A DNA stretch of 64,000 nucleotides from Fibrobacteria bacterium. Its GTDB lineage: Bacteria > Fibrobacterota > Fibrobacteria > UBA11236. The notes beneath the pieces were generated by a model. It saw only the letters and a program-made list of their open reading frames with translations, had not been told where the DNA came from and searched no databases. The stretch is from NCBI GenBank assembly GCA_043745805.1, contig JAYTSD010000006.1:95180-159179 (forward strand), in the 5' to 3' direction. The stretch's first letter is position 1; every line of letters starts with the position of its first letter. Positions 33,684 through 50,307 of this stretch are shown in pieces. Made by a program: the position numbers and the translations under genes.

Positions 33684-34169
33684 TTAGTGTTGGTCGGGAA
33701 AAATATTATCGATTTGATTGGATACATCTTGCCCATGATCGACGTCGGGCATGGTGTCGCTAAACTCATTCTTGCGAATATCTAATAACACTTCTACAAG
33801 TTTCGCTTTAGCTTGATTGGCAATCATTTTAACTAAACCTAAATTGGTGCGATCATCGAAAATCAAAACCATAATCACATCTTCATCCACTAAAGAAATA
33901 TGAATATTTTCTTTTTCCCCTTGATGAAACATTACGGAAAACTCTTGCTCCCCAATAAGCGAAGCAATGGCGCGAGTTGAAGCAAAGCTGCCAGCGGCTA
34001 GGGCTGCAAGGCTAGTAACATCTATTTTAGGAGTGAATCCAACTTGGGAAATTAAATTTCCATCTTTATTCACCAAAAGCACATAGCTTGAGGCGCTTTC
34101 TGTGATTAAATGGGATAAAATTTTACTGAGGCGATCGATATCCTCTTTATAAAGAACAAAATCACCCAT
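33684..34169 (-). CDS. mglB: MglB roadblock/LC7 GTPase-activating protein
   Basis: LVNKDGNLIS, TSLAALAAG, LIGEQEF..FHQG, IFDDRTNLGLV and C-terminal IDNIF helix match the myxobacterial MglB pattern. Confidence 0.88.
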   Translation of the reverse strand: MGDFVLYKEDIDRLSKILSHLITESASSYVLLVNKDGNLISQVGFTPKIDVTSLAALAAGSFASTRAIASLIGEQEFSVMFHQGEKENIHISLVDEDVIMVLIFDDRTNLGLVKMIANQAKAKLVEVLLDIRKNEFSDTMPDVDHGQDVSNQIDNIFPDQH

Positions 34170-36016
34170 TATTTGTCTTTATTAAAGAGGCCACCAAAAA
34201 ACCCTTTTTTCTTTTCCGTAGGATTCGGTAACTTTTTGGTTTTGAAATCTTGTTTGGCCATATCTTCATAAGTCGAAACTATGCCGCTATTATCTTCGAA
34301 AGCCCCAAATTGAGAAAAGGGAGAGGGCTTTGAAGCCTGTGGAGCTGTAGCTGGAGGCAACTCTTGTTGTTGCGGGGGCATTCCAATTTCAGGTGGAGGC
34401 GTTAAGGGCCTTAGATTTGGATTTCTAGGTTGGGGAGGATTAAATCCTGATTGTGAAAAATTTGGAAACCCTCCCGATGCTTCAGTATTTGGCTGTGAAA
34501 GGGGTGCTTGGGGGGGGCTTCCAAATCCACCATAATTTATGGTTGGAGCTGGAGGGCTTGGTGGACTAGGGTTAGAGGAAGGTGAAAAACCTTGACCTGC
34601 ATTAAATGGCGAGGCCACGGGTCCTGGTGCTCCAAAAGGGTTGCTTGGGGGCGCTGCAAAAGGATTTGCCGCCGGAGCCGCAAAGGGATTCGCTGCAGGA
34701 GTTAAACCTGCGGGAGGCGCAAAAGTGGATTCGCTTTTAGCATTAGGATTAGCAAAAGAATTTAAAAATGGAGATACCGGAACATTTGGTTTAGCAGGGT
34801 TGCCAAAACCTAAGCCAGGAGCCGCTGGCATAGCAGGTATTGGGGGTGTCGGTGAGGTTGGGGCTCCGGGGAACGGTCGGAATTCACTGGGCGAACCTAA
34901 AAAGGGATTGGATGCAGGGGATGGCCTTGGCGCTGGGGCTTGTGAGGCTCCTGGCATTTGTCCTGGAAAGGGCGAAGGGAATGGTGTGCTACCTGCTGGT
35001 GGGGCTGGATTGCCAAGCCCTGCAGATTGAAATGGATTTCCAGTAGGCGGCGAAAAGCCAGAAAGTGGGCCTTGTGCTGGACCTTTGGGTTCAGGAATAT
35101 TAAGTGGGGTTCCAAAGCCAGGTGCGGGAAAAGTAAGCGGTGGTTTATTGACCGCAGGATTAGCAAAGGGATTTGCCACCGGAGCCGCAAAAGGGCTTGT
35201 CGGTGGGGTTTGAAAAGATGGAGCCGAAGGCGTGGCGAATGGATTGGCATTAGGCGCAGGGGACGCAAAAGGATTGGGTGCTGCGGCAAAGGGATTCGCT
35301 GGTGCAAGAGGCGTTACAGGGCGAGCGGGAATAATTGGTTGTTGTGGCGCGCGTGGAGGTGCAGCAGGAGCCGCAGCCGCGGGGGCTTGACCACCTGCTG
35401 GCATAGGCCGTCGTGTGCCTTGAAAACCAGAATATTTTGCATTGAATTTATCAATAACCGATTTACCAATGGCTTTAAGCGTGGTGAAAACACCTACACC
35501 CGTTGCGGCTACAGCTTCATAGCAAGGGGAACGATATTTATTTACCAACTTATTTAATTCATCTACGGAATAAACATTGGGTAAATCTCTTTTATTGTAT
35601 TGCAAAACTAAGGGAATGGTTTCTAAGGAATGTCCATACTCTCTTAAATTTTCTTCGAGATTGGCAAAGCTTTCCAAATTTTCTTGGAGTTTATCACTTT
35701 GAGAATCCACCACAAAGACTACGCCATCGACACCGCGCAGCACTAGCTTGCGTGTGGCATTATAATAGACTTGACCCGGTACGGTATAGAGTTGGAACTT
35801 AGTATTAAAACCTTTAATCGATCCCAAATCTAAGGGTAAGAAATCGAAAAATAAAGTGCGATCGGTTTCCGTTGCAAGTGATACCATTTCGCTTTTATCT
35901 TTATCGGGAATTTTCCGATGAATGATTTGCAAATTCGTAGTCTTACCACTTAACCCAGGACCATAATAAACGATCTTACAGCTGATCTCTCGGGTTGCAT
36001 AATTAATTGAGGCCAC
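34169..36016 (-). CDS. mglA: MglA small GTPase with long Pro-rich C-terminal extension
   Basis: GTG start; KIVYYGPGLSGKTTN, ETDRTLFFDF, TVPGQ, QYNKRDL in the first ~195 aa, then a ~420-aa P/A/G/S/F-rich tail. Confidence 0.92.
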   Translation of the reverse strand: MASINYATREISCKIVYYGPGLSGKTTNLQIIHRKIPDKDKSEMVSLATETDRTLFFDFLPLDLGSIKGFNTKFQLYTVPGQVYYNATRKLVLRGVDGVVFVVDSQSDKLQENLESFANLEENLREYGHSLETIPLVLQYNKRDLPNVYSVDELNKLVNKYRSPCYEAVAATGVGVFTTLKAIGKSVIDKFNAKYSGFQGTRRPMPAGGQAPAAAAPAAPPRAPQQPIIPARPVTPLAPANPFAAAPNPFASPAPNANPFATPSAPSFQTPPTSPFAAPVANPFANPAVNKPPLTFPAPGFGTPLNIPEPKGPAQGPLSGFSPPTGNPFQSAGLGNPAPPAGSTPFPSPFPGQMPGASQAPAPRPSPASNPFLGSPSEFRPFPGAPTSPTPPIPAMPAAPGLGFGNPAKPNVPVSPFLNSFANPNAKSESTFAPPAGLTPAANPFAAPAANPFAAPPSNPFGAPGPVASPFNAGQGFSPSSNPSPPSPPAPTINYGGFGSPPQAPLSQPNTEASGGFPNFSQSGFNPPQPRNPNLRPLTPPPEIGMPPQQQELPPATAPQASKPSPFSQFGAFEDNSGIVSTYEDMAKQDFKTKKLPNPTEKKKGFFGGLFNKDK

Positions 36017-37642: not shown

Positions 37643-38713
37643 TTATTTAAATTCGAACTCTCTATCGTTTATCTTACGATATGGAATCTCGCGTCCCCTT
37701 TTATTCTTTAACTCTCTAGGTGCAAAAATATCTTCTTTCACCATAACCGCAAGGTTTTTTGGGAAATTATCATTTTTGTATGCATAATCTATTAATAATG
37801 CTTCGATATTCTCCTGTTTCAATTGATCTTCTATACGCGCTTGATTTTGATTCATCAAAAGCGTGGAGCCACCCCATAGGGCAACAATAATAAAACGCAT
37901 AAGCAAGGCGCATACAAAAATAAAACCGGCGACCCCTAATACCAAGGTGGTTTTATGTTCTTTTTCCGAAGGTTGATATTTGGCCCGCGAGGTTTCCGGC
38001 GAATGAGGAATTTGTTCGGCAGGCTCTATATGGCCACGATTCCATAATCCGAGAATCATTTCATATAAACGAAAGGTGCCGAAAGGCATTTCTTTTTCGA
38101 GTTGCTTTAAGGTTTTGCGACCATTTATTTTTTCCCAGAGCGCATGTTCCCAGCTTTGATCATCGCCATCATTATAAATATCACTGATTTTACGAAACAC
38201 TAAAGTGTCTTCGGGAAGCGATTCTTTTAGCCGCGGCCAATCATCAATGCGGCGCATGCCTTCCATACAAGCAAATTCCGTAGAAATACTTTGTACAAAA
38301 CCCGCCTGACTTTTTTGGCCTGTGGTAAAATCATAATGTCCTTCCGTCCAAGCAAATAAATCACAGATCATATCTTCGGCAGCCAGTTGCAGCCATGATT
38401 CTTTTTCTTCTTCGGTTGCATGGCCTTTAGCCACGAGGGTAGTAAGTAAAGGACGATTTACTTGTTGCGAGAGATTTTGTAAAAGTTGAAAGTCTTCGGA
38501 AGAGATACGGCCCGATTCAATGAGCATTTCTCGAATTTTATTTTCGGGATTTTGTAAACCATTGCGCACGCTAGTTATCGTGCCTTGGGATAAAGATATT
38601 TCGGACTTTTCTTTTCCTCGGGTTAAGGTCAAGTTGCCGGTTTTTTTCTGCTGCAATAAAAGTTGTAAAATGTCGGGTAAAGAAAAATCTTCCAATTGGC
38701 CAGAAAGTATCAT
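37643..38713 (-). CDS. DUF4388-like domain protein with C-terminal TM
   Basis: LSGQLEDFSLPDILQLL..KKTGNL, LFAWTEGHYDF, MEGMRRIDDW. ATG at 38713 overlaps the upstream TGA. Confidence 0.8.
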   Translation of the reverse strand: MILSGQLEDFSLPDILQLLLQQKKTGNLTLTRGKEKSEISLSQGTITSVRNGLQNPENKIREMLIESGRISSEDFQLLQNLSQQVNRPLLTTLVAKGHATEEEKESWLQLAAEDMICDLFAWTEGHYDFTTGQKSQAGFVQSISTEFACMEGMRRIDDWPRLKESLPEDTLVFRKISDIYNDGDDQSWEHALWEKINGRKTLKQLEKEMPFGTFRLYEMILGLWNRGHIEPAEQIPHSPETSRAKYQPSEKEHKTTLVLGVAGFIFVCALLMRFIIVALWGGSTLLMNQNQARIEDQLKQENIEALLIDYAYKNDNFPKNLAVMVKEDIFAPRELKNKRGREIPYRKINDREFEFK

Positions 38714-40872
38714 ATGAAGTTTTCCTTCGGCACACCCGTTGAGGAATAGGTTAATTGGCCTATAGATCCTCGTAGGAGTTTGATAATAAAAATGGAATAC
38801 AATAGCAGTAAGGGAATCCAAACTAAACCATGCAAAGGCCCCAATACATAGTCAGGATAGGTTTTAACCAGATGATGAATTTGATAAATACCGGCGATTA
38901 AAAAAGAATTAATTAGCATCCACAAATAACGGCCTTTTTGACTTCCCATATACAAAGTACCAGAGCCGGGAAAAGCGGCATTTAAGATTTTCCCAAAGAG
39001 ATTGGGAACCAAGATACTTTGCTTTTTTAAACGATCCATAATATCGATGCGCAAGCGACCATCATTAATACCTGCCAAGGCCTTATAACATTCTTGACAA
39101 TGAATGCCTTTGCGACAGACTACACAAGTTGTTTTATTACAGATTTTACAGCGAAAGGTTTTGCGTCCATGAGTAATATGCGAGTAACCTCGATAGCGGA
39201 AAAAAATATAAAGACAAGCAGCACTGGCTAGGATAAAAATAAATAAAGCGGGATAAACAAAAATACCTGAGGTTATTGGAGCCTGTTGAAAATTAAAAGA
39301 CAATACGGTTTCTAAAAGTTCATTTCCAATTAAAGAAATACGGGGTAACAAATCCATGACTTTGCGATTGGGAGGAAGAGAAGGAAAATGCTCATCATTA
39401 TTTTTTAAAAATAAAGTCATAAAAGGCGCATCTAATTCTGCGGCGCGATCCAAAAATTCTTTATGTTGATAAGAATTGTTATTGTAAAGCTGAGTTTGGC
39501 TGGCATTGAACCACAATTCGGAATAATTGGGAGCCACGGCTGTGGCCTGTGCATAAGTATGCGCGGCTTTATCGAAGTCCGAAAGAATCATGGCCAAATT
39601 CGCTTCGGCATTTAGTCCATAGGCATTTGAGGAAATCAATAAATTGGCTTTGTCGGATAGCTCTTGGGCTTTACGGTAATTCCCTTGTTTGCGATAAAGT
39701 ATGGACGCCGCGAGCGTAGCAAAAAACTGTTCCTCTTTATCTTTGGGAGCTAAGGATGTTAAGGTTTTTTCTCTTTCGGACTCATACCCTCGCAAAGCGC
39801 TTTGATCATAAAGATGGAGACCGCCTTTTGGATCTAAATGACGATAAAAAACACTTTCTATCAGCAAAGAAAAGGGCAAAAGAAAAATCGCCAGCAAACA
39901 AAATTTTAAAAAACCTTTTTCAAAAGGATTGGTTACTTTCCACAGTAATAATACGGCTATTAATGCCAGCGACACACCTCCACAACCAATGGCCCATAGG
40001 CTGCAAAAGCCAAGAGCAATAGCAGCATAACGTACGGAAATCTCTACCTCGCGCGGCAGCTTTTCAGCCCAAAGATGGGTGACTTGAGTAAAATGACGTA
40101 ACCCCAATGTTAATAATCCTAACCCACAGAAAAGACTTATGCCAAGGCGCAAAGCTTGTAAAAAATTAAGCCAGATAAAACTTTGGCTTTCATAATAAAG
40201 TGAAAGTTGAAAAATATCCGAAACATATTTCCAAATGCCATCAAAGTCCCATTTCCACATGACACTTCCGCGCATAAGAAGTTCCATACGCATAAAGGGA
40301 ATCCACGGCGAAAGGGGATCTAATTCTTCGGCAAAGTTTAAAGCATGTTGCACTAAGGGCATTTGTTTTTGTGCTAATCCTTCACGGACTTGCAAAAGCG
40401 ACATTTTGGCTAATTCAGGTGCTTGTATATATCCCTTTTCTAAGAGCACATGTAAAGTTTCTTTTTCGAAAATTAAAGCTTGGGTAAAAAGTTTTTGCTC
40501 GGTTAGAATACGCGCCAATTCATAGTTAACGGCCGCGTCACCTTGGGAAAAAACTAAGGCTTCGGTTAGCGCTTGATCGCTTAAACTGGGATTAGCCATA
40601 GCTAAAGCGATTTGTGCAAAAGCCTTAGCCGCCTTTGAAGGAGGAGGATTGCTAGCATTCCAAACATTTAATGCGGCTACAAAATTTTCTTTTTCGGCAA
40701 CCGTGGTTTTTTGAGCGAAAATATGTGCGGCTGAAGGGACTCGACTAATCAATTCCCATTTGGCAGATAAAGTTCTTTTTTCATTCTCTAAAAGGGAGTT
40801 TTGGGCAAAAAGATTTTGTCCTACTGAGCCTATGAGAAGGCCGATTAAACAGGTCAGTCGCAAGATAGGCAA
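38710..40872 (-). CDS. Multi-pass membrane TPR protein with Cys cluster
   Basis: Signal peptide, TPR-like helices, several TMs, CKIC..CVVC..CQEC, FPGSG hairpin. Confidence 0.7.
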   Translation of the reverse strand: MPILRLTCLIGLLIGSVGQNLFAQNSLLENEKRTLSAKWELISRVPSAAHIFAQKTTVAEKENFVAALNVWNASNPPPSKAAKAFAQIALAMANPSLSDQALTEALVFSQGDAAVNYELARILTEQKLFTQALIFEKETLHVLLEKGYIQAPELAKMSLLQVREGLAQKQMPLVQHALNFAEELDPLSPWIPFMRMELLMRGSVMWKWDFDGIWKYVSDIFQLSLYYESQSFIWLNFLQALRLGISLFCGLGLLTLGLRHFTQVTHLWAEKLPREVEISVRYAAIALGFCSLWAIGCGGVSLALIAVLLLWKVTNPFEKGFLKFCLLAIFLLPFSLLIESVFYRHLDPKGGLHLYDQSALRGYESEREKTLTSLAPKDKEEQFFATLAASILYRKQGNYRKAQELSDKANLLISSNAYGLNAEANLAMILSDFDKAAHTYAQATAVAPNYSELWFNASQTQLYNNNSYQHKEFLDRAAELDAPFMTLFLKNNDEHFPSLPPNRKVMDLLPRISLIGNELLETVLSFNFQQAPITSGIFVYPALFIFILASAACLYIFFRYRGYSHITHGRKTFRCKICNKTTCVVCRKGIHCQECYKALAGINDGRLRIDIMDRLKKQSILVPNLFGKILNAAFPGSGTLYMGSQKGRYLWMLINSFLIAGIYQIHHLVKTYPDYVLGPLHGLVWIPLLLLYSIFIIKLLRGSIGQLTYSSTGVPKENFI

Positions 40873-40876
40873 AAGG

Positions 40877-42277
40877 TCAAGTCTCCTTAATTTTCAAGCC
40901 GTACTTCTCTATTTTTCTATAAAGGGTAGAAACATCTAAACCGAGTATCTTGGCTGCCGTGGGTTTATGTCCATTATTTTGTGTGAGCACCCAGTATATA
41001 TATGCTTTTTCAATTTCATTCATAGTTGGGCTAGCAACTGAGGATTGAGTGGGAAAATAATCAGACTCTTTTCCAGCTCCATCCATTTTAAAATCTTGAG
41101 TATACTCCGCAATGACGCGATTATCGAGATCTAAATGATCAATGCTGGCTTCAGGCGTAAAAGCAATGGCACGCTCTACGGCATTTTCTAATTCACGTAC
41201 ATTACCTGGCCATGAGTAAGCTAAAATTTGGGAGAGAGCCGCGGGCGAAAAAGTTTTTTGTCCATGACTTTTTCTTTTTAAAAAATAATCAGCGAGTAAA
41301 GCCGGATCTTCTTCTCTTTCTGCAAGGCGAGGCATATAAATGCGCAGCACATTGAGTCGATAATAAAGATCTTCACGAAATAGATTACGAGCTACAGCCT
41401 CTTCCAAATCCACATTGGTAGCCGCAAGTATACGCACATTAATGGCGGTGGGCACGGTCCCGCCTACGGGTAATACTTCGCGCTCTTGTAAAACGCGCAA
41501 TAATTTGACTTGCGTATGCAATGGCATTTCTCCAATTTCATCAAGAAAAATAGTGCCTTCATTGGCTGCCGCAAATAAACCTTCTTTGTCCGTATAGGCT
41601 GAAGTGAAGGCGCCTTTAATATGCCCAAACAGTTCACTCTCCAATAAATTTTCAGAAAGGGCAGAGCAATTCACCACCACAAAAGGTTTACCTAATCGAC
41701 GAGATTTTTGATGAATGAGCTTGGCGACACGTTCTTTACCCGTACCGCTTTCACCCGTTATTAATACTGTACTTTCGGAACAGGCTACGGCTTCAATTTT
41801 TTCACGCAATAAATGCATGATATTTGACCGGCCTACAAATTCGCTTTGGCTTTGATCTTTCAAAACCTCTTTGAGCTCAATATTTTCACGGTGCAAACTG
41901 CGATTAGCAATCACCTTTTCCACAACCTTATGCAAAAAAACCATTTCAAAAGGTTTGGAAATAAAATCAAAGGCACCCAGTTTTATGGCTTCCACCGCTT
42001 TTTCAACGGTGCCATAAGCGGTCATCACAATAACTGGAAGGGTTGGGAATTTTTCCAGCAAGGCTTTGACTATGGTCAAGCCCGAATCGGGACCTAAAGA
42101 CAGATCGACCATAGCCATCAAGGGCTCTGGCCCATCGCGTAATTTTAAACCATCGATTAAATTATGGGCAGAAGTAACGGCATAACCTTTTTTTTCGAAG
42201 AAAACTTCTAAGAGGCTACAGAGCGACACTTCATCATCAATAATTAAAACTTGAGGATTCATGTTTTTCCAAATCAT
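40877..42277 (-). CDS. NtrC-family sigma54-dependent response regulator
   Basis: Receiver (LIIDDE, MVDL, MTAYG, KPF), GESGTGKE, GAFTSA, WPGNVRELEN, Fis HTH. Confidence 0.92.
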   Translation of the reverse strand: MIWKNMNPQVLIIDDEVSLCSLLEVFFEKKGYAVTSAHNLIDGLKLRDGPEPLMAMVDLSLGPDSGLTIVKALLEKFPTLPVIVMTAYGTVEKAVEAIKLGAFDFISKPFEMVFLHKVVEKVIANRSLHRENIELKEVLKDQSQSEFVGRSNIMHLLREKIEAVACSESTVLITGESGTGKERVAKLIHQKSRRLGKPFVVVNCSALSENLLESELFGHIKGAFTSAYTDKEGLFAAANEGTIFLDEIGEMPLHTQVKLLRVLQEREVLPVGGTVPTAINVRILAATNVDLEEAVARNLFREDLYYRLNVLRIYMPRLAEREEDPALLADYFLKRKSHGQKTFSPAALSQILAYSWPGNVRELENAVERAIAFTPEASIDHLDLDNRVIAEYTQDFKMDGAGKESDYFPTQSSVASPTMNEIEKAYIYWVLTQNNGHKPTAAKILGLDVSTLYRKIEKYGLKIKET

Positions 42278-42381
42278 GGCTAAAAGCCTATAAATACACC
42301 AAAAAGTAAAAACGGAATTTTAGAAAAAACTCCGTCCACATTGGATAGCGTTCTATTGTACGAAAAATGTTTGGAAATAGG

Positions 42382-42416
42382 AAAAAATAAAAGCTAAACC
42401 CAAAATGGATTTAGCT
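42382..42416 (-). terminator. Intrinsic terminator of rpsT
   Basis: Minus strand AGCTAAATCC-ATTTT-GGGTTTAGCT followed by a T-tract. Confidence 0.65.
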
Positions 42417-45936: not shown

Positions 45937-46851
45937 ATGAACATCGAACTGACCAAAAATAAAAGTTTGCATGATGACCATTCCCTTTTAGCCGTAAAGA
46001 CTTCGATAGAAAAATCCGAGCAAGGTTTGCATTCAGCAAAAATGTCGGCAGCCGATGCGAAGCGTTGGAAAACCAGTTTAGAGTTTGAAGCCATGTTTAT
46101 GGGGCAAATGATGAAAGCTATGCGGCAAACCATTGATGAAAGTGAAGTGGCCGATAAGGCACCCGGCCATGAAATATTTAATGATATGCTCGATCAAGAA
46201 TATGCTCGCAGTAATTTACACTCTCCACAAAAGAATGGGGCATTGGGTTTATTGGCTGCCAAGCAAGGAAAGTCAACCGGTTTGGCGGCCCAAATTTATC
46301 GCTCACTCGCGCGCCAAGAAGGATTAGTGCCCTCACCATTGGGGCCAGAAAAATTATTACAACAAATTAAACCCGGCCAATTTATGCAAGGATTACGCAA
46401 TGCGGAGGCTAAACATATTTCACCAGCGGTTAATGATGCCAAGACAAAATTGAATGAAGTCATACTGGATCCTTTAATTGAAAAGGCCTCGGTTTTATTT
46501 CAAGTTTCAAAAAACCTGATCAAAAGTGTGATTCAGCATGAAAGTGGAAATCGCCCTGATGCCATTTCTCCAGCGGGTGCAAAAGGTTTAATGCAATTAA
46601 TGGATAGCACGGCGAGTGATTTGAAAGTTAAAAACGTATTTGATCCGCAGGAAAATGTTTTTGCCGGCACCAAATATTTAAAATCATTGCTCGAAAAATT
46701 TGGAGGCGATGAAGCCAAGGCTTTAGCAGGTTATAATGCGGGTCCGGCGCATGTGGAAAAATATGGTACGGTGCCCCCTTTTCCTGAAACTCAACGCTAT
46801 GTAAAACAAGTTTTGCAAACCAAATGGGCTTGGGATAAGCAGGAGAAATAA
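45937..46851 (+). CDS. flgJ: FlgJ-like protein: rod-binding domain + SLT lytic transglycosylase
   Basis: FEAMFMGQMMKAMRQT..MLDQEYA rod-binding motif; HESG, AKGLMQLM, ALAGYNAG, ETQRYV SLT motifs. Confidence 0.8.
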   Translation: MNIELTKNKSLHDDHSLLAVKTSIEKSEQGLHSAKMSAADAKRWKTSLEFEAMFMGQMMKAMRQTIDESEVADKAPGHEIFNDMLDQEYARSNLHSPQKNGALGLLAAKQGKSTGLAAQIYRSLARQEGLVPSPLGPEKLLQQIKPGQFMQGLRNAEAKHISPAVNDAKTKLNEVILDPLIEKASVLFQVSKNLIKSVIQHESGNRPDAISPAGAKGLMQLMDSTASDLKVKNVFDPQENVFAGTKYLKSLLEKFGGDEAKALAGYNAGPAHVEKYGTVPPFPETQRYVKQVLQTKWAWDKQEK

Positions 46852-46856
46852 ATTTT

Positions 46857-47444
46857 ATGTTACATGAAAACACCTTTCAAAATAATGCGATCGCGGAATA
46901 TACGGATCCCAGAGAAATGTTAGGCGAAGAATTAACTCTAAATTTTAAAGCGCAATATGCAGGCTATGAACATTATTTGTCTTTGGCCGAGAAACAACGC
47001 TTGGTATTAATCAATCGGCAACTTGTAGGTAATGAAGAATTGAATTTGCAGTCGGAAGAAATTGTGCAATATCTTTTTGATTTAGAATTACGCCGTATTG
47101 ATTTAACAGAAAGGCTTTTGGTTTTTCATCCCGATCCGCAAATGGGTTTGGAAAATAACTCGATTCGCTGCGAACAAATTTATCCTTGCCTTTATCCGCA
47201 AGAAGCGGCAAAACTGAAGCACTGGAGAGATGCCTTGGTGGAAAAACTTAAAATCCTCCGATTTGTTTTAGACACGAATGCCGCTTTAGCTGAAAACGGA
47301 CAAAAAATTATTCATACCACTATTGGCATCTTGACGAGTGTAGTTAATCGCAAGCATACCGATCGTTTTCAAGTGTACGGACGCCAAGGGCAAGTGCATC
47401 AAGATCGCAGCCAAGTACGTAATCTAATTAATCGGATGGTATAA
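46857..47444 (+). CDS. flgN: Flagellar export chaperone FlgN-like
   Basis: All-helical protein directly upstream of flgK, with N..L..N and YGRQG tail. Confidence 0.6.
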   Translation: MLHENTFQNNAIAEYTDPREMLGEELTLNFKAQYAGYEHYLSLAEKQRLVLINRQLVGNEELNLQSEEIVQYLFDLELRRIDLTERLLVFHPDPQMGLENNSIRCEQIYPCLYPQEAAKLKHWRDALVEKLKILRFVLDTNAALAENGQKIIHTTIGILTSVVNRKHTDRFQVYGRQGQVHQDRSQVRNLINRMV

Positions 47445-47445
47445 C

Positions 47446-49128
47446 ATGTCGCTGTTTAGTTCGTTGAATATTGGTATGCGTGGCCTCAATGCTTCGCAAC
47501 AAGCCATAGATGTTACGGGTCAAAATATTTCTAATGCGAATACTGAAGGTTACTCTCGCAAAAGATTGGATTTACAAGCGGATTCCCGAGCGGATGCGGT
47601 TTATGGTGAATTGGGTATGGGAGTGGATGTCGCCTCGGTGCAAAGAGTGCGCGATGCTTTTTTAGATTCACAAATTTCCGAACAATTAGGAGATAAAGGT
47701 TATCAAACACAACTGAATGGGGCGATGGAAAGAATGGAAGCCATTATCCAAGAGCCTTCGGATAATGGATTAAATTCAGCCTTAAATAAATTTTGGGATA
47801 CTTGGCAGGATTTAGCCAATAACCCTGCTGACTTTTCGGCGCGTGATGGGGTGATGGCGGCAGGAAATGTAATAGTTGATTTACTCCATTCTTTGGGTGG
47901 AAAATTAAGAGATTATCGTACTTCCATGGACGATCAATTACAGTCACGTGCGACATTAATTAATAGTTATACTAGTCAAATTGCCGAATTAAATACCAGC
48001 ATTGCCACCTCCGAAGTGCAACCTGGGCAAGTGGCTAATGATAGTCGTGATAAACGTGACTTACTTGTACGTAAACTTTCGGAATTTGTAGACATTACTT
48101 ATAATGAAGATGCGCATCATCGTATAACTGTTAGTTCGGGTGGCGATATTTTGGTGGGACCTACGCAATCCTATGCTATAAAGATTGATGGACATACTAC
48201 CATTCAAGAAGATGGTTCCACGCAAACCACCATAGGCTTGCAGTTTAAGGATTCTTTAAAAGCATTTAATCCACGTGGTGGAGAAATTAAAGGCTTATTG
48301 GATACTAAACGAGTGTTGGTTCCTAAGTATGAGGGCTTATTGAACAGTCTCACTAAAACCATTGTACAGTCGGTTAATGAACAGCATGTGCAAGGTTATA
48401 ACTTGAATAAAAGTACGGGTGTTTTATTTTTTGATCCCGATCATCTTACCGCCGAAACCGTGCAAATAGGATCCGCGATAAAGGAGAGTATTAATAATAT
48501 TGCGGCTGCCGCAGGAGGATTGGCTTCACCTCAAGTTACTTTGGCGAATACAATTCCGCTCGCCTTAACGCCTAATGTGGATTTGAAAACAATTAACCCC
48601 ACTTATAAAAACTTAGTGCTAGGGTCTTTGCAAATTAGTTTTGCTCCCAGTGGCGTGGTATTACAAGAGGGTGCGGGAAAAGATTATATCACGGATTATA
48701 CCACAGGTGTGATTACTTTCACGAATTATGCGAACTATGCACCGGGCGCAAATATTCAAATCAAATTTCAAAATCAACAAAATGGATTTCCTGGAAATGG
48801 CAATGGTCAGAATGCACTAAACATTGCCCAGTTAAGACAAAAAACTACTATGGCTCCCAATCAAGCAGGAGCGAATACACAAAGTATTAATGAATTTTAT
48901 AGCGCGATGGTGGGCACCTTGGGGATTGAAAAAAATCAAGCGGCTACCAATTTGCAAACTCGTGAATTTATTGTTTCGCAACTCGATAGCGAACAGGCGA
49001 AAGTTTCGGGCGTTTCCATGGATGAAGAAATGACCAATATGATCAAATTTCAACACAGCTACCAAGCATCGGCGCGTTATATCAGCACCATTAAAGAAAT
49101 GCTAGACGTATTGATGAATATTCCATAA
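47446..49128 (+). CDS. flgK: Flagellar hook-associated protein 1
   Basis: GLNASQ..NISNANTEGYSR, VSGVSMDEEMTNMIKFQHSYQASAR. Confidence 0.95.
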   Translation: MSLFSSLNIGMRGLNASQQAIDVTGQNISNANTEGYSRKRLDLQADSRADAVYGELGMGVDVASVQRVRDAFLDSQISEQLGDKGYQTQLNGAMERMEAIIQEPSDNGLNSALNKFWDTWQDLANNPADFSARDGVMAAGNVIVDLLHSLGGKLRDYRTSMDDQLQSRATLINSYTSQIAELNTSIATSEVQPGQVANDSRDKRDLLVRKLSEFVDITYNEDAHHRITVSSGGDILVGPTQSYAIKIDGHTTIQEDGSTQTTIGLQFKDSLKAFNPRGGEIKGLLDTKRVLVPKYEGLLNSLTKTIVQSVNEQHVQGYNLNKSTGVLFFDPDHLTAETVQIGSAIKESINNIAAAAGGLASPQVTLANTIPLALTPNVDLKTINPTYKNLVLGSLQISFAPSGVVLQEGAGKDYITDYTTGVITFTNYANYAPGANIQIKFQNQQNGFPGNGNGQNALNIAQLRQKTTMAPNQAGANTQSINEFYSAMVGTLGIEKNQAATNLQTREFIVSQLDSEQAKVSGVSMDEEMTNMIKFQHSYQASARYISTIKEMLDVLMNIP

Positions 49129-49143
49129 AGTTAGGAGCAATCT

Positions 49144-50307
49144 ATGACCTCACGCGTAACCTTTAGCCAAATGACTTCTCATGTACAGCAGCAGTTATTT
49201 GATAATTTTGGAAAACTGGAAAAATTGCAAGAACAATTATCCACTGGTAAAAGAATTTTACGTGGGTCGGATGATCCTATCGATGCTACCAATGCTATGG
49301 AAATGCGTACCAATTTGTCGCAGCTCGATCAATACAAACGCAATATGCAGGATGGCATTGGCTATATGTCCACGGTGGATGCGAGTTTAAATTCGGGCAA
49401 TAGTATGTTTCATACTTTGCGAGAAAAGGCTTTGCAGGGAGCGAGCGATACCAATACGGCGGCCAATCGAAAATTGATTTTTCCTGATGTGCGCGCCATG
49501 CTTGATCAATTAGTGGCCATGTCGAATACGACCTTTAAAGGCGATTATGTTTTTTCCGGCGCGAATACGCAAGTGCCTCCTTATGAAATGCATGCAGGAC
49601 AAAGTTTAATTACTACGGGACTTACGGTGGGTACCTTAGGTTTGCCAATTCAAATGGTGGATACTTCAATTACGAACTCTAACGATAATCCCAATGGAAA
49701 TGCCAATGCCTATGATGTAATTCCCAACACCTTGAGTATTGGAGGCCTAACGGAGGGGACGGATTATCAGGTTGATTATGTGAAAGGAACCATTACCTTT
49801 ACTGCGCCTGGAGTTGCAGCTTTAGCTTTAGCAGGTGGCGCAGGAATTAATATGAACTATTCTTGGGTCCGTCGTAATGAAGCCGATTTAGAAGGCAAGG
49901 TTAATCGTGAAATTGAACAAGGGGTAACCGAAAAAATTAATAGTACGGCTTCTGAAGTGTTTGGGAGTCGCACCGAGACTTCATCTTGGGATACTATTAT
50001 AAATTTATTGGATGGATTGCATAATAATCAAGTCAGTAAAATTACTGGGAGTATTGGACAAATTGATACTGTTTTTCAGCGTTACCTATCTGCTCAAGGC
50101 AATAATGGCGCGCGTATAAATCACTTTGAATCGACAACTGACAGAGGCGATCTTTCTACTGTGAATTCCACGCAATTACTTTCGCAATTAGAAGACATTG
50201 ATTTTACGGAAGCCACTACTCAGTTTTCAATTCAACAAAGCGCTTATAATGCTTCCTTAAAAGCAGCGGCGCAAGCTATTCAAAATACTTTGGCTAATTT
50301 TTTATAA
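49144..50307 (+). CDS. flgL: Flagellar hook-associated protein 3
   Basis: QEQLSTGKRI..SDDP, YVFSG, LEDIDFTEA..YNASL. Confidence 0.93.
   Translation: MTSRVTFSQMTSHVQQQLFDNFGKLEKLQEQLSTGKRILRGSDDPIDATNAMEMRTNLSQLDQYKRNMQDGIGYMSTVDASLNSGNSMFHTLREKALQGASDTNTAANRKLIFPDVRAMLDQLVAMSNTTFKGDYVFSGANTQVPPYEMHAGQSLITTGLTVGTLGLPIQMVDTSITNSNDNPNGNANAYDVIPNTLSIGGLTEGTDYQVDYVKGTITFTAPGVAALALAGGAGINMNYSWVRRNEADLEGKVNREIEQGVTEKINSTASEVFGSRTETSSWDTIINLLDGLHNNQVSKITGSIGQIDTVFQRYLSAQGNNGARINHFESTTDRGDLSTVNSTQLLSQLEDIDFTEATTQFSIQQSAYNASLKAAAQAIQNTLANFL

Follow-up and report, generated by a model that had tools for sequence, protein, structure and literature searches.

The small GTPase MglA is the model of a Ras-like polarity switch in bacteria, and the usual view is of a small protein, soluble and brought to the cell poles by its partners. 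The solved MglA chains are 195–203 residues long. Passages of a preprint call the MglA family cytosolic (10.64898/2026.07.23.738820), and a 2014 survey places group-1 MglA in Fibrobacteres and reports PATAN neighbours for some group-1 MglA/MglB pairs, sequences longer than 240 aa having been left out (39/488 in the MglA clade; PMC4316618). A 313-aa MglA homologue of F. succinogenes appears in a table of Fremgen et al., without comment (PMC3000849). Within the literature searched, which did not extend to supplementary tables, no description of a tailed or membrane-anchored MglA was found; such a class may be missing because the main survey of small GTPases dropped everything above 240 aa. Here we describe a long mglA gene in a 64,000-nt stretch of DNA (the window) from a Fibrobacteria bacterium of the phylum Fibrobacterota (contig JAYTSD010000006.1, positions 95,180–159,179), the product of which continues in frame from a canonical G domain into a tail of 420 residues. 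Sequence comparisons lead us to lean, without great assurance, towards a three-part MglA consisting of the G domain, a linker of phenylalanine stickers and spacers with conserved motifs, and a putative membrane anchor of the type found in MinD. What is new is the phylum-wide picture in Fibrobacterota with its alternative tail ends, the conserved short motifs and the Phe-sticker/NPF tail of ~420 aa.

The G domain leaves little doubt about the family. As originally predicted, it is a canonical MglA domain of ~195 aa: residues 3–191 align with residues 3–191 of the Myxococcus xanthus MglA chain (PDB 5ymx; E 7e-76, 259 bits), and a second solved chain named "Gliding protein mglA" (3t12), which we take to be Thermus thermophilus MglA, is matched at E 1.7e-70. 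The P-loop GPGLSGKT, the segment TETDRTLFFDF with the intrinsic Arg, TVPGQ and NKRD are identical to 5ymx in the alignment, and Pfam gives only weak Arf, Gtr1/RagA and Ras matches. In the G3 motif TxxGQ, Thr replaces Asp and the catalytic Gln is present; this Thr78 feature of MglA is described in an earlier paper (PMC3000849). Group 1 is described by a single domain of ~195 aa, and the protein here has 615 aa. The genome has no other match to the MglA family, and the G domain of this one is 89–93% identical among orthologues of the family. A Shine-Dalgarno-like AAGGAAG lies 7–8 nt 5′ of the GTG start, and the TAA stop overlaps the ATG of the mglB-like gene as TAATG. The locus shares with the group-1 systems of M. 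xanthus and T. thermophilus (5ymx, 6h17 and 3t12, with MglB) the same G domain, an MglB-like gene directly 3′ and a PATAN neighbour, and differs from them in the 420-aa tail with its anchor-like end, in two or three extra Roadblock-type genes and in two membrane proteins.

The most conserved part of the tail is its final 15 residues, which the original prediction had left out: its coordinates, 34214–35430, correspond to about aa 196–601, and the gene lies on the minus strand. In 35 non-redundant orthologues, all of which start with ...ASINYATREISCKI, the tail stays in the same frame and ends in the same 40-residue C-terminal module, with the consensus D.SGIV[ST]TYEDMxKDDsFKTKKLPxPxEKKKGFFDGLFKKxK, in which a basic FKTKKLPxP patch precedes EKKKGFFxGLFxKxK. 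The family consensus of the final peptide is KKKGFFDGLFKK; the four hydrophobic positions and the flanking Lys residues are conserved and the two middle positions are variable. Its core, KGF[FL]xx[LF]F, matches the membrane-targeting sequence of Escherichia coli MinD, KGFLKRLFGG, as given in excerpts of two sources (PMC5471200; preprint 10.64898/2026.10.05.756812), in that hydrophobic residues occupy positions i, i+1, i+4 and i+5, basic residues flank them and the peptide stands at the extreme C-terminus. It differs from MinD in being carried by a Ras-like GTPase instead of a ParA/MinD ATPase, in the linker of hundreds of residues in front of it and in the Gly-Gly at the variable positions of the window's copy, and its membrane binding is putative. 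The orthologue form KGFFDGLFKK (P0003) has a hydrophobic moment of 0.58, and in an AF2 model of the last 62 aa (26-row alignment, mean pLDDT 67) short helices form at TYEDMA and GGLF. Among all open reading frames (ORFs) of at least 100 aa in the genome, ends of the G[FLW]xxx type are limited to the long MglA, FlgH, a glycosyltransferase-like ORF and membrane proteins. The final peptide would sit on the inner face of the cytoplasmic membrane, and because of this conserved MinD-like end the reading shifts from a soluble scaffold to a membrane-tethered GTPase.

Between its four conserved islands, as judged from alignments of 27–35 orthologues with per-position counts from 27 rows, the matrix of the tail is variable and cannot be aligned. 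Its character is nevertheless kept in the 35 orthologues: the tails are 200–480 aa long, with 22–35% Pro, 4–9% Phe and 3–7% charged residues. In 32 of these 35, the aromatic residues are distributed more regularly than in 1000 shuffles (median coefficient of variation, CV, 0.57 against 0.91). The evenness of the window's own tail is weaker (CV 0.75, p = 0.11), and it has no aromatic pair within 2 residues where 5.0 are expected (p = 0.002). What is conserved is a Phe content of ~8%, together with a low charge and a regular spacing of the aromatics, and not NPF as such. The multivalent scaffold that had been proposed keeps its footing in the even aromatic spacing, but the anchor-like end had been overlooked and its soluble form has been revised. 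Of 31 related genomes, 22 have a match to the protein, with open frames of 288–780 aa in the same family. The runs listed as containing the stretch are four DNA runs of one sediment study and none of RNA. Contigs of two of the four, which are possibly its source, are unchanged across it; in two further samples of that study the larger part of the tail is covered by fragmentary contigs, which differ by no more than 2 substitutions and have no indels, and in X3 and X4 no contig lies over the bin 34230–34320.

The tail consists of 25% Pro, 15% Ala, 9% Ser, 9% Gly, 9% Phe and 7% Asn. In its core Pro, Gly, Ala, Ser, Asn, Gln and Thr make up 78%, Trp, Cys and His are absent, and Ile, Leu, Val and Met together reach 7.6% compared with 26% in the G domain. 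It had been called nearly uncharged, which is right for aa 196–555 (12 Lys or Arg and 6 Asp or Glu in 360 aa) but not for the charged final 60 aa. A recount gave exactly the nine NPF (aa 241, 248, 258, 282, 327, 370, 443, 451 and 459, in the contexts ANPFA five times, PNPFA, GNPFQ, SNPFL and SNPFG) and five SPF of the original prediction, and a total of 16 xPF. Compared with 2000 composition-preserving shuffles of the tail, NPF is 13-fold enriched (9 against 0.7 expected, reached by 0/2000 shuffles), ANPFA occurs 5 times against 0.01 (0/2000), SPF 5 against 0.83 (3/2000), PF 16 against 9.2 (16/2000) and GF 9 against 3.1 (5/2000). No such enrichment was seen for FG (6 against 3.2, 159/2000) or for F.{5,9}F (13 against 12.5, 992/2000). 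The window's nine NPF are the highest count: orthologues have 0–5, typically 2–5 where 0.1–0.7 are expected, and in most relatives Phe stands in GF and FG contexts, with up to 25 GF and 22 FG. The absence of xPF motifs from close relatives had been named as a sign against the proposal; relatives poor in NPF do exist, with GF and FG mostly in its place, and the Phe content is kept at 4–9%. Selection of the motifs as peptide, which had also been proposed, agrees with the varied synonymous codons among the nine NPF, but NPF is conserved at only one position (21/27), the other eight showing no conservation in the 27-row alignment. The claim that there are no exact DNA repeats holds roughly, except that TRF finds a single 24-nt tandem repeat of 1.9 copies (34656–34701, 81% matches) and a repeat search of the DNA a degenerate 38-nt family of seven copies (61–74% identity). 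Because the repeats are degenerate and the NPF codons vary, the motif units are read as ancient duplications that have been retained as peptide. The tail-coding DNA (34250–35500) has a GC content of 50–55% with a strong GC skew between flanks of 37–43%, and ORFs in other frames over it (34641–35030 on the plus strand, 34897–35307 on the minus strand and 34958–35557 on the plus strand) are spurious, a consequence of the Pro/Ala/Gly codon composition.

The tailed gene extends across the phylum. When the G domain was used as the query (E ≤ 1e-30) against 296 sampled Fibrobacterota genomes, including one without a match (G269), 245 gave a match, so that the whole phylum appears to use a tailed MglA, many ending in a MinD-type putative anchor. 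Among the 150 matches listed, eight frames are shorter than 260 aa, five of them at a contig end (G113 was checked directly), and the rest are 288–850 aa long; no complete mglA of ~195 aa is shown among these 150, three of the eight short frames not having been examined. Twenty of the phylum genes were read, one of which runs off its contig (L041), leaving 19 that are complete. Ten of them have a KGF-type end after a homologous module of the form [MYFTSVN], basic, PVNP, basic, and their tails, 112–632 aa long, are Pro/Gln-, Gln/Asn- or Asp/Glu-rich; in one more, a KGF variant is followed by an acidic stretch. The remaining eight comprise four Fibrobacter-type genes (L036–L038 and L042; 309–328 aa) that end in ...[DE][IV]xLRPYxPK, two (L046, L053) that end in ...YPT[RQ]R[LM]P and two (L044, L045) with acidic tails and a D[IL]KP[FY] motif. 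Among the best 120 long homologues, a loose pattern finds the KGF-type end in 85 and a strict pattern in 69, 27 are of the YPTRRMP type and 8 are others. Since the tails vary while the ends recur in types, the common design is a switch domain, a variable leash and what would be a localisation end, and widely differing lengths and compositions would be expected if only the end and a tether matter. The distant tails, Pro/Gln-rich or acidic, are almost devoid of NPF; a leash rich in Phe and bearing NPF is peculiar to the window's family, with one other genus sharing it in part (42–43 Phe in a Pro/Gln matrix). One of the 8 others among the long homologues, a 389-aa protein on a 4.3-kb contig (P0084), consists of an MglA G domain and a linker rich in Pro, Gln and Tyr and ends, where the KGF peptide would stand, in a FliN/SpoA-type domain (PF01052). 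This agrees with the idea of a leashed localisation module and hints at attachment to the switch complex of a flagellum or a type III system, but it is a single sequence on a possibly chimeric contig.

The genes around the long mglA form a row on the same strand (Table 1). In the 17 loci of the family, some of which are one genome counted twice, the order unknown (283-aa) gene, Roadblock A, Roadblock B, mglA and mglB is kept in 17/17, and the loci with enough flanking sequence also hold the PATAN gene (8), the membrane TPR gene (6) and the NtrC-type gene (3). In the wider phylum, 11/16 loci have the genes for the membrane TPR and PATAN proteins beside the long mglA, and 12/16 have mglB there; the Fibrobacter-type loci are without the first two, and no clear co-variation between the KGF end and an operon partner was seen across the phylum loci read. 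The membrane TPR protein has a zinc-ribbon-like CKIC...CQEC at aa 575–595. The PATAN protein probably starts further downstream, as its ORF overlaps that of the 720-aa protein by 112 nt. Terminator-like hairpins lie 5′ of the NtrC-type gene at 42310–42416.

Table 1. Genes of the row and parts of the long MglA in the window (positions are those of the 64,000-nt stretch).
Feature	Position	Strand	Basis
NtrC-type sigma-54 response regulator, first gene of the row	40877..42277	-	Pfam Response_reg, Sigma54_activat, HTH_8
Polytopic membrane protein, 720 aa, weak TPR and 4-Cys motif	38710..40872	-	TPR matches below cut-off; six hydrophobic segments
DUF4388/PATAN protein, start codon uncertain	37643..38821	-	Pfam DUF4388 7.6e-27; one predicted membrane segment, aa 297-315
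Conserved protein, 283 aa	36790..37641	-	no Pfam/NCBIfam match; between PATAN and Roadblock genes in 17/17 family loci
Roadblock-like protein A, 141 aa	36368..36793	-	weak Pfam MAPKK1_Int, 23.2 bits, cut-off 25; syntenic
Roadblock protein B, 110 aa	36031..36363	-	Pfam Robl_LC7 2.3e-6; ATG start as in orthologues; syntenic
Long mglA	34169..36016	-	615-aa ORF, GTG start, TAA stop; ORF list and translation
G domain, aa 1-195, group-1 MglA type	35432..36016	-	alignment to solved MglA chains
Conserved island 1, aa 196-207, consensus AGFQGTRRPxRPG	35396..35431	-	directly after G domain; near-invariant in 27 orthologues
Variable low-complexity core of tail, aa 208-574, Pro/Ala/Gly/Ser/Asn-rich, ~8% Phe, few charges	34295..35395	-	composition, motif counts
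Positionally conserved NPF, aa 282-284	35165..35173	-	NPF in 21/27 rows; F284 at least 90% conserved
Conserved island 3, aa 411-421, VPVSPFLNSFA, consensus IPVSPFVExFG	34754..34786	-	P413 invariant; P416, F421 at least 90%
Conserved C-terminal module, aa 575-615	34172..34294	-	alignments; homologous module across phylum
Putative membrane-targeting amphipathic peptide, aa 601-615, EKKKGFFGGLFNKDK	34172..34216	-	KGF[FL]xx[LF]F pattern
MglB-like Roadblock protein, 161 aa	33684..34169	-	Pfam Robl_LC7 7e-12; NCBIfam MglB 86 bits, below cut-off 200

An outline of how a three-part MglA might work is as follows. The MglB-like protein, translationally coupled 3′ of mglA, would regulate the switch domain, and the extra Roadblock proteins may help to set its nucleotide state. 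The basic patch and the KGFFxGLF peptide would hold the GTPase at the inner membrane, so that the tethered switch works beside the two membrane proteins of the operon (TPR/4-Cys and PATAN); the predicted membrane segments in both of these proteins support such a setting. The linker of ~370 residues, with ~30 evenly spaced Phe stickers in NPF, SPF and GF contexts and short conserved motifs, is probably disordered, and as a long uncharged leash it would give the G domain a wide search radius near these proteins. The stickers may make weak multivalent contacts with the linker itself or with partners and could cluster the GTPase, and the conserved islands probably dock specific partners. A bolder version, in which membrane-pinned copies cohere through their stickers into a two-dimensional condensate or brush, seems doubtful to us; there the GTP/GDP state would, via MglB and the Roadblock proteins, toggle a patch that positions a motility or secretion machine, and if it were true, a Ras-like switch of bacteria would have built into it an equivalent of the FG-repeat networks or of the NPF networks of endocytosis.

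Several observations weigh against the tethered three-part protein. A charge-hydropathy measure leaves the tail off the disordered side; uncharged, cohesive low-complexity regions behave so in this measure. The full-length AF2 model, built on a shallow alignment of 27 rows, has a mean pLDDT of 46; not even the G domain is modelled well, and little can be read from the all-coil tail. The 32/35 for even spacing overstates independence because the orthologues are kin. As to the anchor, the window's best 12-mer, EKKKGFFGGLFN, has a hydrophobic moment of 0.40 and makes a weaker case than the orthologues; its copy reads GFFGGLF, the Gly-Gly in the middle weakening the helix propensity, and the AF2 helix at the KGF motif is only four residues long (GGLF, block pLDDT ~75). 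Anchoring by this peptide is not universal, since the KGF end is missing from three lineages of the phylum, whose tails close with conserved sequences of other kinds. No MinD stands above the family cut-off in the genome, and hence there is no anchor from the same organism for comparison; its FtsA ends in a different amphipathic peptide. Modelling of complexes had been proposed as a check; a model of the G domain with two MglB and the last 62 aa scored 0.00 against a mark of 0.32, without controls, and counts neither for nor against the three-part protein.

How do other explanations fare? The tail could be a recruitment scaffold in which the NPF/xPF motifs and the islands are bound specifically by folded proteins (a reader of the EH or GYF kind, or the TPR, PATAN or Roadblock proteins of the operon) and the stickiness of Phe is irrelevant. 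This is partly compatible with the three-part protein as far as the conserved islands go, and it draws on these islands (AGFQGTRRPxRPG, one NPF, IPVSPFVExFG and SGIVsTYEDM), conserved within a variable tail, and on the 13-fold excess of NPF over composition; yet eight of the nine NPF positions are unconserved and orthologues substitute GF and FG. The NPF/EH-domain network belongs to eukaryotic endocytosis. The tail resembles it in having multiple NPF in a probably disordered region and differs in that their positions are mostly unconserved, and the EH analogy drawn in the original prediction lacks support. The EH domain PF12763 has no match in the genome, but the search is uninformative, the control having matched in 0/14 genomes. 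The genome has one GYF_2 domain (66.9 bits, G000:C4:160659-160802), at the C-terminus of a 363-aa protein (L072 1456-2547, minus strand), which by eye we take to be SPFH-like and which is unlinked to the mglA row. This protein is a possible reader of the tail, because in M. xanthus the MglA network relies on disordered linkers and on stretches rich in proline that a bacterial GYF domain recognises (PMC11135422); its location and presumed SPFH-like character speak against it. On balance we regard pure docking as unlikely. A somewhat smaller chance is given to the idea that the KGFFxGLF peptide binds a protein and not lipid, the membrane TPR/4-Cys and PATAN proteins being the candidates; this too is partly compatible with the three-part protein. 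FtsZ and SSB carry short amphipathic C-terminal peptides on flexible linkers, and in bacteria such peptides are used both ways, the FtsZ peptide being the precedent for binding a protein. That the TPR and PATAN genes adjoin the long mglA in most phylum loci argues in its favour, but at two loci (L064, L068) the motif is present and neither gene was found adjacent, and the exact residue pattern of MinD lipid binding, together with Lys/Arg flanks as in lipid-binding helices, points the other way.

The linker might also be an entropic spacer, the Phe/NPF pattern being a by-product of slippage-driven low-complexity evolution. The ANPFA units are indeed encoded by degenerate repeats of 24–38 nt, and the tails of the phylum vary from Pro/Gln-rich to acidic and from 112 to 632 aa; against this, the 35 orthologues, although their sequences cannot be aligned, have all kept the Phe content and the low charge, and even spacing persists among them, NPF codons vary synonymously and aromatic neighbours are avoided, which makes the spacer improbable. 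Mis-assembly, a frameshift or read-through can be ruled out for practical purposes. The original prediction had asked for a check in close relatives and of the assembly, and in both the tail has proved real: the same frame and the same end module recur in the 35 non-redundant sequences from many assemblies, long open frames occur throughout the phylum, and the contigs covering the stretch have neither indels nor joints. Nothing in the window suggests such an artefact, and only one 910-aa relative (P0016), with an Arg-rich out-of-frame tail running on into MglB sequence, resembles one; it is probably a frameshifted read-through from a sequencing or assembly error.

Eukaryotic Ras, Rho and Rab proteins have a hypervariable region and a membrane anchor. 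The long MglA is like them in being a small GTPase with a variable, flexible C-terminal region and a basic, putatively membrane-binding end, and unlike them in that a signal for lipidation (CAAX or Cys) is absent, the place of the lipid being taken by a putative amphipathic peptide, and in that its linker is about ten times longer. If the three-part protein is true, the design of a small GTPase tethered to the membrane through a variable linker also arose in bacteria. Another prokaryotic small GTPase with its own amphipathic helix (predicted in our case) is ArcoA, described in passages of a preprint as an archaeal member of the Ras superfamily with a membrane-binding amphipathic helix (10.64898/2026.07.23.738820); it belongs to another family, and its helix is N-terminal and directly attached, with no long linker. 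Judged from sequence alone, the tail resembles FG-nucleoporins and prion-like sticker-and-spacer regions in its low charge, its ~8% of evenly spaced aromatics, its Pro/Gly/Ala/Ser/Asn matrix and the GF and FG of its relatives, uniformly distributed stickers being a scaffold feature according to one study (PMC7376131); it differs in its 25% Pro, in the NPF and SPF contexts, in being bacterial and in its tether to a GTPase. The Phe-sticker linker could be a compact natural case in which to ask whether a bacterial GTPase can organise a multivalent assembly at the membrane.

Five genes of the PilT family that pass the cut-off, three further DUF4388 genes and flagellar genes are also present in the genome. 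Some of the last lie 4–10 kb from the operon (45937–50307, plus strand) and encode a FlgJ-like SLT/rod-binding protein, FlgN, FlgK and a flagellin-family protein, with FlgH and FliG elsewhere. FliG occurs in 135/296 Fibrobacterota genomes, a sample that includes G269, and in 0/101 and 0/19 genomes of two Fibrobacter-like genera. A link of the long MglA to flagella was considered and stays a side observation, as one genus (g22) has MglA in 0/14 but FliG in 12/14 genomes and another (g16) has MglA in 100/101 but FliG in 0/101. Genus g4 of the window's family is mostly without both (MglA 2/12, FliG 1/12). Many lineages do have FliG together with the long gene of the KGF type, and the families whose KGF-type tail ends were read are each FliG-positive in some or all of their genomes, the two features being counted by family and not crossed genome by genome.

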